From Klebsiella phage LPKP23, in the sequence record PV112478.1: DNA of 64,000 bases; one strand, given 5' to 3'. The position numbers and the translations under genes are program-made. How positions within the stretch are numbered: the first letter of the stretch is position 1; each line of letters starts with the position of its first letter. Shown here piece by piece: positions 30,223 through 31,247 of the stretch. Under the pieces are notes generated by a model. That model was not told the DNA's origin and did not search any database. It was given only the letters and a program-made list of their open reading frames with translations.

Positions 30223-30386
30223 CAGCTCGATTGTTTCTTTTTCTTTCTGAAAGCAAGCTGCACATAAATGGCAATTGCACCAGCGAGAATAATAAGCAGG
30301 ACAATATCAATCAATACACCTACCATTCGAAACAACACCAAAAAGATGACGGCCAGTAATATTAACCAGCCGATCTTTTTCAGCAT
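30223..30386 (-). CDS. Small two-helix membrane protein (54 aa)
   Basis: Below the ORF-track cutoff. ATG 30386 with AGGAAAA RBS, 4 nt after the binding-protein stop. MLKKIGWLILLAVIFLVLF...LLIILAGAIAIYV hydrophobic helices. The antisense + ORF 30162..30359 is rejected. Confidence 0.35.
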
Positions 30387-30389
30387 AAC

Positions 30390-31247
30390 TTATTTTCCTG
30401 ACGCTGTACCCTGAACGCGCGCAGAGTTCTTCAGAAGAATTGTAGAGGCATCTTCAAGGAACTGGTCGCTGTCGCCTGAGGTATTCGCTACCACCAGGGT
30501 TTTCGTGCAAGGGACTTTTACGGTCGAATTGAAAAGGATACCCGAGTCGGTTGTTGCTTTTTCGATCGTGTACACCGCTTTACCGTTCGGCAGTTTTGCA
30601 TCAGCATTCCAGGAGTTGAAATCAATGATCTCGAGCCCCGAATCTTTTTGCATGACTGCGTCCAGGAATTTATTATTCCGGTCAGGTGCAGAAACCCAAA
30701 GGAACGCGTCGTATTCGCCAGTATTCACTTTAGCCAGGGAACGGATACCGCCTTTGGCATACGTTTCAACTTTCGCGTAGTTTTTCTCCAACGTCTGGAG
30801 ATACTGCCACGAAGCGTAAGATCCAGAGGTAGGTTCACCTACAGCGATTTTAGTGCCTTCTTTTAGATCACCTTTACCGGTGACCTTACCGTCTTTCTTG
30901 ACGGCGACAAAGACGCACTCACTGGCCAGTTCGCCAATGATATCAACGTTCTGTGCTTCGTTGGCATGACGCGAACGCCAGAACTGATAAGCATCAGCTT
31001 GGGTAAACCCGATAGTGGCTTCTCCAGAGGCTACACGATCAAGGTTATCGAGCGAGCCTTTAGAAGGGACAACCGAAGTCTGGTAACCGTACTCGCTTAG
31101 AGCACTAGCTAAGTTTACGCCATAAACGGCGTTATAAGTTAAACCTTGTTGACCGGTGGTAATAACAATTTTGCCATCGGCCGCGGATACGCCAGCACTC
31201 ATGCAAAGTAACGCTACCGAAAACACGGCAAAAGCAAGTTTCTTCAT
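30390..31247 (-). CDS. TAXI-family (TRAP-type) periplasmic solute-binding protein with signal peptide; orphan (no permease nearby)
   Basis: Signal peptide MKKLAFAVFSVALLCMSAGVSA (start placed at ATG 31247; RBS AAAGGGA 7 nt upstream). TTGQQGLTYNAVYG, PSKGSLDNLDRVASGEATIGFTQAD and IAVGEPTSGSYASWQ are motifs I recall from TAXI solute receptors (GTGGTGGVYY, TGGSVENL...SGE.D...QSD and VAVGAPGSGTE). Confidence 0.55.
   Translation of the reverse strand: MKKLAFAVFSVALLCMSAGVSAADGKIVITTGQQGLTYNAVYGVNLASALSEYGYQTSVVPSKGSLDNLDRVASGEATIGFTQADAYQFWRSRHANEAQNVDIIGELASECVFVAVKKDGKVTGKGDLKEGTKIAVGEPTSGSYASWQYLQTLEKNYAKVETYAKGGIRSLAKVNTGEYDAFLWVSAPDRNNKFLDAVMQKDSGLEIIDFNSWNADAKLPNGKAVYTIEKATTDSGILFNSTVKVPCTKTLVVANTSGDSDQFLEDASTILLKNSARVQGTASGK

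Follow-up and report, generated by a model that had tools for sequence, protein, structure and literature searches.

The 64-kb window analysed here (the whole stretch of DNA under study) comes from Klebsiella phage LPKP23 (PV112478.1) and carries on its minus strand two neighbouring genes, one for a binding protein and one for a small hairpin peptide. This cassette very probably encodes an exported, ligand-binding protein with the TAXI fold together with a dedicated peptide partner. The former is properly named a TAXI-like orphan binding protein and not a TRAP transporter subunit, because it scores below the NCBIfam threshold and has no adjacent QM permease. Both open reading frames (ORFs) that a preliminary description of this DNA, made from its letters alone, had reported do exist, with 285 and 54 residues:

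30390 to 31247, minus strand: binding-protein gene, 285 residues, from the ATG at 31247 to the TAA at 30392-30390, stop included
31182 to 31247, minus strand: predicted Sec signal peptide, residues 1-22, MKKLAFAVFSVALLCMSAGVSA, with cleavage before ADGK, assigned by inspection
30222 to 30386, minus strand: gene of the 54-residue, two-helix inner-membrane peptide, from the ATG at 30386 to a stop that ends at 30222

Over the cassette, Klebsiella phage vB_kp_MJ359 shares 99.7% identity with the window and phiKp24/FBKp24 shares 87%. LPKP23 is a lytic jumbo phage of the genus Maaswegvirus (phiKp24-like), in agreement with the virulent jumbo phage of the preliminary description. The binding-protein gene itself is no new discovery, its TAXI annotation being already in GenBank: the counterparts in FBKp24 are gp043, recorded as 'TRAP transporter solute receptor, TAXI family', and gp042, recorded as hypothetical, and the TAXI-receptor annotation is also public for several Erwinia jumbo phages. 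Orphan phage binding proteins as such are already known as well, and a search of BFVD returned TTT/Bug-type binding proteins in uncultured phages. As for the orphan status that had been put forward as an oddity, the lack of a transporter stands, but the protein is not unrecognised, since it is annotated in FBKp24 and in Erwinia phages and defines a phage protein family (PHROG 6856).

Fold, export and ligand pocket of the binding protein

The Pfam profile NMT1_3 (PF16868), which the preliminary description had named as a check, matches the binding protein with E=7e-13 and 49.2 bits for a gathering cut-off of 27, over profile positions 1-196 of 289 only (about the first two thirds). The Phosphonate-bd profile remained sub-threshold for this protein, and NCBIfam TIGR02122 (TRAP_TAXI) gave 62.1 bits, under its cut-off of 84.35. 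PHROG 6856, a phage family with no assigned function, matches it from end to end (E=4e-108). Judged from its sequence, the protein is a divergent TAXI subfamily member.

An AlphaFold model of the protein was built on 41 relatives and reached a predicted local distance difference test (pLDDT) of 87 and a predicted template modelling score of 0.82. When it was compared with the PDB by Foldseek, the best seven matches were all TAXI binding proteins (E 2e-14 to 3e-12, template modelling score 0.60-0.72), among them VcGluP (9ibo/8s4j), VCA0144 (9ibp), the Ehrlichia immunogenic protein 4ddd and Thermus GluBP (8u79/1us4). Identity to these characterised proteins is only 15-18%. Other classes of binding proteins come at E 6e-10 or weaker, at least 100-fold behind the TAXI hits, and the profile of the binding-protein family reaches the same TAXI entries of the PDB at E 3e-9 to 4e-6. 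The motifs quoted in the preliminary description (TGQQGLTY, KGSLDNL...SGEATIGFTQAD and IAVGEPTSGSY) are all present, and its proposal of a periplasmic binding protein of the TAXI fold is borne out by the Pfam match, the model and the top Foldseek hits. Some metagenome proteins carry two to four such binding-protein domains in tandem: P0149 (1137 residues), P0203 (1063 residues), P0183 (2478 residues), P0182 and P0200.

The N-terminus consists of MKK, a 15-residue hydrophobic core and VSA|AD, with V-S-A at -3 to -1; by inspection, this is the n-h-c build of the classic Sec signal that had been proposed. In the model, residues 1-23 are disordered (pLDDT below 50) and the first strand starts at residue 27, and crystal constructs of mature TAXI proteins align from about residue 22. 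The same type of signal-like N-terminus is found in 39 of the 41 family members. A lipoprotein was ruled out, there being no lipobox and Cys16 not being conserved. Cys111 and Cys247 are invariant in the 41-sequence alignment and sit, in the model, on two long strands crossing between the lobes. A disulfide between them is plausible and would suit a periplasmic protein.

The residues of VcGluP that contact glutamate include Y45, S75, Q93, E125, G156 and D157 (PMC11574862). They were mapped onto the phage protein, together with Y200, by HMMER sequence alignments and not by superposed coordinates:

VcGluP Y45 corresponds to phage Y38
VcGluP S75 corresponds to phage S65
VcGluP Q93 corresponds to phage Q83
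VcGluP E125 corresponds to phage E110
VcGluP G156 corresponds to phage G142
VcGluP D157 corresponds to phage S143
VcGluP Y200 corresponds to phage W184

Y38, S65, Q83, E110, G142 and S143 are among just 26 positions that are invariant in the 41 sequences, which go down to 39% identity. Of the residues with which VcGluP binds glutamate, Y45 and Q93 have the greatest influence (PMC12344293). In these alignments, the pocket residues conserved in the family appear to be those that hold the alpha-amino and alpha-carboxyl groups in characterised TAXI proteins, and S40, Y46 and H123 of VcGluP, which bind the side-chain carboxylate of glutamate, correspond to Q33, N39 and A108. An alpha-amino-acid-like ligand, not necessarily glutamate, is a reasonable prediction, and the invariant pocket would favour genuine small-molecule binding over a pure protein decoy.

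When the window is compared with FBKp24, the ratio of nonsynonymous to synonymous divergence comes to 0.029 in the binding-protein gene and 0.10 in the peptide gene, which shows strong purifying selection on both. Such ratios (0.03-0.1), like the 26 invariant residues, argue against a functionless passenger gene on its way to decay. The same holds for the presence of the gene in all 12 Maaswegvirus records and in about 24 records of Erwinia-type jumbo phages, and for the size of the family: a profile search of 1.84 billion representatives found 125 clusters at E<=1e-30 and 941 at E<=1e-10, nearly all of them 265-300 residues long. A passenger is very improbable to us, even if some prophages do contain decayed copies and E. 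coli seldom has the cassette (3 of 5426 complete genomes). The decayed cassettes (prophages L085-L090, at about 5960-6320) are reduced to residues 138-200 of the binding protein and a frameshifted piece of the peptide gene. Silent-site divergence from FBKp24 is 1.17 in the binding-protein gene and 0.25 in the abutting peptide gene, a contrast that points to a recombination breakpoint where the two genes meet.

Across the whole window, every ORF has at most two membrane-like segments, and none of the 90 loci carrying family members has a multi-helix TRAP permease. By contrast, the canonical TAXI loci that served as a control in the same scan (L104-L122) each have a DctM of 14-16 helices directly downstream. 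When the control DctM was compared by tblastn with 50,697 phage records, the only matches were two unrelated faecal contigs, and no Klebsiella or Erwinia phage matched. A hidden permease is therefore rejected by the window ORF scan, the 90 loci and the tblastn search. The elements that define a TRAP system, i.e. adjacent DctQ and DctM or a fused QM protein, are missing. The preliminary description had noted that no permease lies nearby, and this extends to the loci of the family and to the related phages. Neither a fold other than that of solute-binding proteins as best match nor an adjacent transporter operon was encountered.

The hairpin peptide and its pairing with the binding protein

The preliminary description had correctly seen a coupled two-helix peptide downstream, in a tRNA-rich region, but had taken it for a mere neighbour. 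It is instead a conserved, dedicated partner gene and not a bystander. In every prophage-type and Maaswegvirus locus the peptide lies within -4 to +6 nucleotides of the binding-protein stop, and a peptide profile made from 30 distinct versions has no match elsewhere in these loci. The same profile found 104 proteins in the protein database, mostly from Klebsiella and Raoultella, the host group of the window phage, and when contexts were opened from the peptide side the binding-protein gene was directly upstream in four out of four. The prophage counterpart, an ORF of 41-53 residues after the binding-protein gene in about 60 loci, is 32% identical to the window peptide. In the window, the binding-protein stop and the peptide start are separated by 3 nucleotides (TAA GTT ATG), and the Shine-Dalgarno AGGAAAA of the peptide falls within the final codons of the binding-protein gene; as the sequence reads, translation of the peptide is coupled to the binding-protein gene.

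This tight pairing, in which the stop and start codons overlap or nearly abut at about 60 loci, weighs against a soluble sponge, i.e. a protein that would sequester a periplasmic metabolite or signal, or act outside the cell after lysis, with an unrelated role for the peptide. Stoichiometric sequestration of an abundant amino acid would also be costly, and the recruitment of another hairpin peptide in the Erwinia lineage (see below) argues for a joint function. A sponge would nevertheless account for a conserved pocket without a permease and for the binding protein without an adjacent peptide in phage KLEP7 and some viral contigs. It would also suit late, Q-driven high expression in the slot where Stx phages have their Shiga toxin genes, whose products are likewise exported and released by lysis. 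On balance, we consider a sponge improbable.

In the peptide, residues 1-19 and 20-38 form two hydrophobic segments (mean Kyte-Doolittle 2.4-2.5); its ends are basic, as in the prophage versions, and its C-terminus is polybasic. R20...G23...D27 form its invariant core and are its sole invariant residues. According to the positive-inside rule, both basic ends would be cytoplasmic and only the turn near R20 periplasmic, and D27 would lie within the second helix, two helical turns in. No Pfam, NCBIfam, PHROG or PADLOC family matches the peptide, and the PADLOC defence models match neither the peptide nor the binding protein. In architecture, the peptide resembles class II holins or pinholins (small, two helices, charged C-terminus), with no holin family match. 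Short hairpins of this kind are frequent in phages, and the window alone has five ORFs for them.

Erwinia-type phages lack the downstream peptide. In all 11 of their loci, a different two-helix peptide of 55-60 residues ends 56-68 nucleotides upstream of the binding-protein gene and belongs to PHROG 1470, 'TciB-like' (E=4e-19); TciB of phage P1 is Pfam DUF3927. In Halomonadaceae elements, yet another two-helix ORF, of 60 residues, abuts the start of the binding-protein gene. The repeated pairing with hairpins in separate lineages suggests that the inner membrane is where the binding protein acts, in concert with a hairpin. A single ancestral peptide for all lineages is unsupported, hhalign of the Erwinia against the window-type peptide giving probabilities of only 19% and 5%. 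Homology of the window peptide to TciB/DUF3927, an idea that arose from a common length and from the W-P motif of prophage versions, is likewise unsupported: DUF3927 (PF13064) and PHROG 1470 do not match it even at E<=10 or E<=1, and the hhalign probability for the window-type peptide is 5%.

Furthermore, TerB (PF05099) precedes the TciB-like peptide in four Erwinia-type loci (L008 1219-1830, L061, L069 and L075). The row of TerB, TciB-like peptide and binding protein recalls the P1 order tciA(TerB)-tciB-tciC-tRNA, an operon to which tellurite or colicin resistance has been assigned only 'by homology'. This resemblance would be expected if the cassette mediated superinfection exclusion or protected the envelope against the DNA of competing phages or against colicins, in the manner of P1 Sim, T4 Imm/Sp or HK97 gp15. 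The moron-type location in prophages also suits exclusion, and the sharing of cassette versions between Klebsiella prophages and a Klebsiella jumbo phage would fit competition between phages. However, an invariant small-molecule pocket would be superfluous for blocking by a protein, PADLOC gave no match, and the window-type peptide has no detectable TciB/DUF3927 homology. In prophages, moreover, no sigma-70 promoter was found ahead of the cassette, and the genes stand behind a late terminator, which makes their expression in lysogens doubtful, and Tci function has never been demonstrated by experiment. We hold exclusion to be quite unlikely. In a 205-kb viral contig, a TerC/DUF475 membrane protein is encoded 2.7 kb downstream of the binding-protein gene (L079 9565-10533).

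Prophage relatives and surroundings of the cassette

The closest relatives of the binding protein (72-77% identity) are sequences of Phytobacter, Kluyvera, Citrobacter, Enterobacter, E. coli, Salmonella and Sodalis, with Klebsiella and Raoultella prophages also among their carriers. Every one of the contexts examined is a lambdoid prophage that has the gene after the Q antiterminator and before the genes for holin, endolysin and spanin. The same gene is found in about 60 IMG/VR prophage contigs, and resident prophages of Klebsiella often bear a copy with 75% identity. A second clade (64-69% identity) comprises the Erwinia-type jumbo phages, whose records come from Erwinia or Salmonella phages and include Asesino, Huxley, Machina, Wellington, Kwan and phiEaH2. 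More distant members belong to Pseudaeromonas phage KLEP7, Halomonadaceae integrative elements, large viral contigs and a few marine chromosomes. In a neighbour-joining tree, the Maaswegvirus proteins form the sister group of the prophage clade in 157 of 200 bootstraps, and the Erwinia proteins make up a clade of their own in all 200. At the nucleotide level, similarity with the prophage genes is about 70% and ends at the edges of the mature coding region, the flanks being without homology, so the transfer is old. The horizontal acquisition proposed in the preliminary description holds to that extent, but the source was not a host TRAP operon: recent capture from one is rejected, as the nearest relatives are genes of lambdoid prophages and the flanking DNA shows no homology. 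The family is borne by phages and mobile elements.

The position in prophages is constant, whether Q belongs to PF03589 or to PF06530 and whether lysis is encoded by holin_2_1 with lysozyme or by holin_3_3 with GH108. No sigma-70 promoter was found upstream of the prophage cassette. One prophage locus has a tR'-like terminator after Q and two further terminators ahead of the holin, a layout which implies that the cassette belongs to the Q-antiterminated late transcript. The Q-to-lysis slot is where stx sits in Stx phages. Just past the lysis genes, two cassette prophages (L003 11800-12084; L013 11020-11355) have a hairpin gene of the Acb2/Tad1 type, an anti-defence sponge family.

A place directly upstream of holin, endolysin and spanin in every lambdoid prophage examined, despite the differing Q and lysis types, together with transcription behind a tR'-like terminator, is what one would expect of a ligand sensor. 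In such a system, the periplasmic protein would signal the presence of a small molecule to the peptide, which would alter the membrane state or the timing of lysis or infection. The holin-like architecture of the peptide is in keeping with this, as are its three invariant residues, two of which are charged and at or within the membrane, and the family-wide lack of a permease. Moreover, the Neptuniibacter and Oceanospirillaceae relatives adjoin a chemoreceptor gene, as signalling binding proteins would, but this link comes from two closely related marine genomes only. In the jumbo phage the cassette stands beside tRNA genes and not lysis genes, the prophages already have a holin, and the peptide has no similarity to any holin or antiholin family. 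We judge sensing unlikely. The two marine relatives (L093/L094) are flanked by a divergent chemoreceptor gene and an NAD-glutamate dehydrogenase gene; these neighbours encode a methyl-accepting chemotaxis protein of 681 residues and a dehydrogenase of 1540 residues (3624-5705 and 8155-12779, both on the minus strand).

In the window, the surroundings of the cassette hold these further features:

31254 to 31260, minus strand: Shine-Dalgarno-like AAAGGGA, 6 nucleotides 5' of the ATG at 31247, by direct sequence reading
30393 to 30399, minus strand: Shine-Dalgarno-like AGGAAAA, 6 nucleotides 5' of the peptide ATG, by direct sequence reading
28687 to 30169, minus strand: array of nine tRNA genes found by ARAGORN, the first 53 nucleotides past the peptide stop

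Two alternative starts of the binding-protein gene, a GTG at 31349 (longer ORF) and an ATG at 31253 (two codons upstream), are unlikely because homologues begin at MKK or MRK. No sigma-70 promoter or intrinsic terminator above chance was found around the window cassette. The tRNA array, which has the same layout downstream of the cassette in FBKp24, probably shares its transcription unit, although it is outside the cassette proper. A 51-residue ORF with two CxxC pairs (zinc-ribbon-like) lies just upstream of the cassette (31783-31938, minus strand) and a 113-residue ORF inside the tRNA array (29502-29843, minus strand); neither has a Pfam match. The binding-protein gene adjoins tRNA genes in three unrelated lytic lineages, Maaswegvirus (window, 28687-30169), the Erwinia Asesino type and Pseudaeromonas KLEP7 (tRNA genes at L008 612-4665 and L009 5035-5108), and tciABC of P1 is also flanked by tRNA genes (L124 1049-1202 and 2634-2709).

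ARAGORN found a tenth tRNA gene at 33160-33243, on the minus strand, with the anticodon TTA ('tRNA-Stop'); it is annotated as tRNA-Sup-TTA in FBKp24 and would read UAA. The phiKp24 paper describes this tRNA as an opal (TGA) suppressor, at odds with the UUA anticodon. The peptide ORF is in frame with the TAA of the binding-protein gene, one codon on, and ochre read-through would fuse both products. This arrangement was judged coincidental, since the cassettes of prophages are in other frames and the polybasic tail of a fused product would end up in the periplasm.

Uptake through a host carrier and comparison with known systems

The function that we tentatively rank first, as possible rather than probable, is uptake by hand-over of the ligand to a putative host carrier. 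The protein would fill the periplasm during infection, bind a small ligand, most likely a glutamate-like amino acid, and deliver it at the inner membrane to a carrier encoded by the host, with the hairpin peptide as a docking or adaptor subunit. The cassette would thus be an auxiliary uptake module, with a logic like that of cyanophage PstS plugging into the PstCAB of the host. In lambdoid prophages, behind a Q-dependent late promoter and terminator, the protein would be produced in large amounts late in the lytic cycle. Uptake is ranked first because the transport-type pocket is intact and because there are precedents in PstS/PstCAB and TAXI-GltS.

Several points weigh against uptake. Both the host carrier and the ligand are putative, and the latter may not be glutamate, since the positions that would bind its side chain differ (Q33, N39 and A108). 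Docking on a TAXI permease of the host is not implied, because identity to characterised TAXI proteins is so low and the TIGR02122 score falls below its cut-off. The peptide exposes almost nothing to the periplasm, and it is hard to see how it would dock a binding protein. Late, Q-dependent expression in prophages is an odd moment for nutrient import. In addition, the cellular relatives without a permease, two of them beside a chemoreceptor gene, hint at sensing, and the TciB-like and TerB company in Erwinia-type phages is linked by homology to colicin and phage resistance. Another conceivable arrangement is a self-sufficient module of both proteins in which an oligomer of the peptide, through its membrane Arg and Asp, would retrofit a GltS-type elevator carrier of the host or would act as a ligand-gated switch of lysis or infection timing; we regard it as less likely than exclusion and likelier than a sponge.

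In the searchable literature, we came across no study on what phage or prophage TAXI proteins do and nothing on a conserved pairing with a hairpin peptide, on a cassette common to lambdoid prophages and jumbo phages, on a family-wide lack of permease or on an invariant amino-acid pocket; the phiKp24 papers do not mention the binding-protein gene. Phage binding proteins without transporters are usually classed as stray metabolic genes. Here, the protein is part of a conserved two-gene unit that is common to lambdoid prophages and several jumbo-phage lineages, including a group of Klebsiella phages that are therapeutic candidates. If uptake is true, the unit would be a new type of auxiliary metabolic module for enterobacterial phages and would include a second TAXI protein that works without a TRAP permease, after TAXI-GltS. 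If sensing or exclusion is true, the unit would be relevant to lysis timing or to competition between phages in Klebsiella. A peptide that retrofits a carrier or acts as a switch would make it a two-protein system without a described counterpart, in temperate and virulent phages of Enterobacteriaceae.

Like the canonical TAXI-TRAP proteins VcGluP (VC0430; 8s4j/9ibo) and GluBP (1us4/8u79), the phage protein has a two-lobed fold, a predicted export signal, the motifs TGxxGxY, GS, QxD, E and SG, and the residues that hold the amino-acid backbone. Unlike them, it is about 20-40 residues shorter, with the low identity given above and other residues at the side-chain-binding positions. Its cysteines are C111 and C247, whereas VcGluP has C53-C67 and C191-C216, and its family never has an adjacent DctQM permease.

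Two other systems with which the cassette shares its setting are the P1 tci operon and the morons of lambdoid phages. As in tciA-tciB-tciC, a small two-helix peptide is encoded in an accessory operon beside tRNA genes; in contrast, the window peptide is downstream and not upstream, the window has no TerB and P1 has no binding protein. With Q-to-lysis morons such as stx, the prophage cassettes share the slot and a product with a predicted signal peptide; however, that product is a binding protein and not a toxin, and the jumbo phage that carries the window copy is virulent and lacks that promoter architecture.

The two precedents for uptake each cover part of the arrangement. In Bordetella pertussis, the TAXI protein BP0403 binds glutamate and is coupled to the non-TRAP carrier GltS (PMC12344293). 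The likeness lies in the absence of a TRAP membrane component and in translational coupling to the gene of another membrane protein. BP0403 is, however, a three-domain dimeric lipoprotein with a carrier of 10 or more helices, whereas the phage cassette has a 54-residue hairpin and is carried by a phage. Cyanophage PstS integrates into the phosphate transporter of the host (bioRxiv 10.1101/2021.07.20.453049), which likewise means that a lytic phage carries the periplasmic binding protein only and relies on membrane parts of the host. PstS is close to the host protein and has an obvious host partner, whereas the phage TAXI family is far from host TAXI proteins, is restricted to phages and comes with a peptide of its own.

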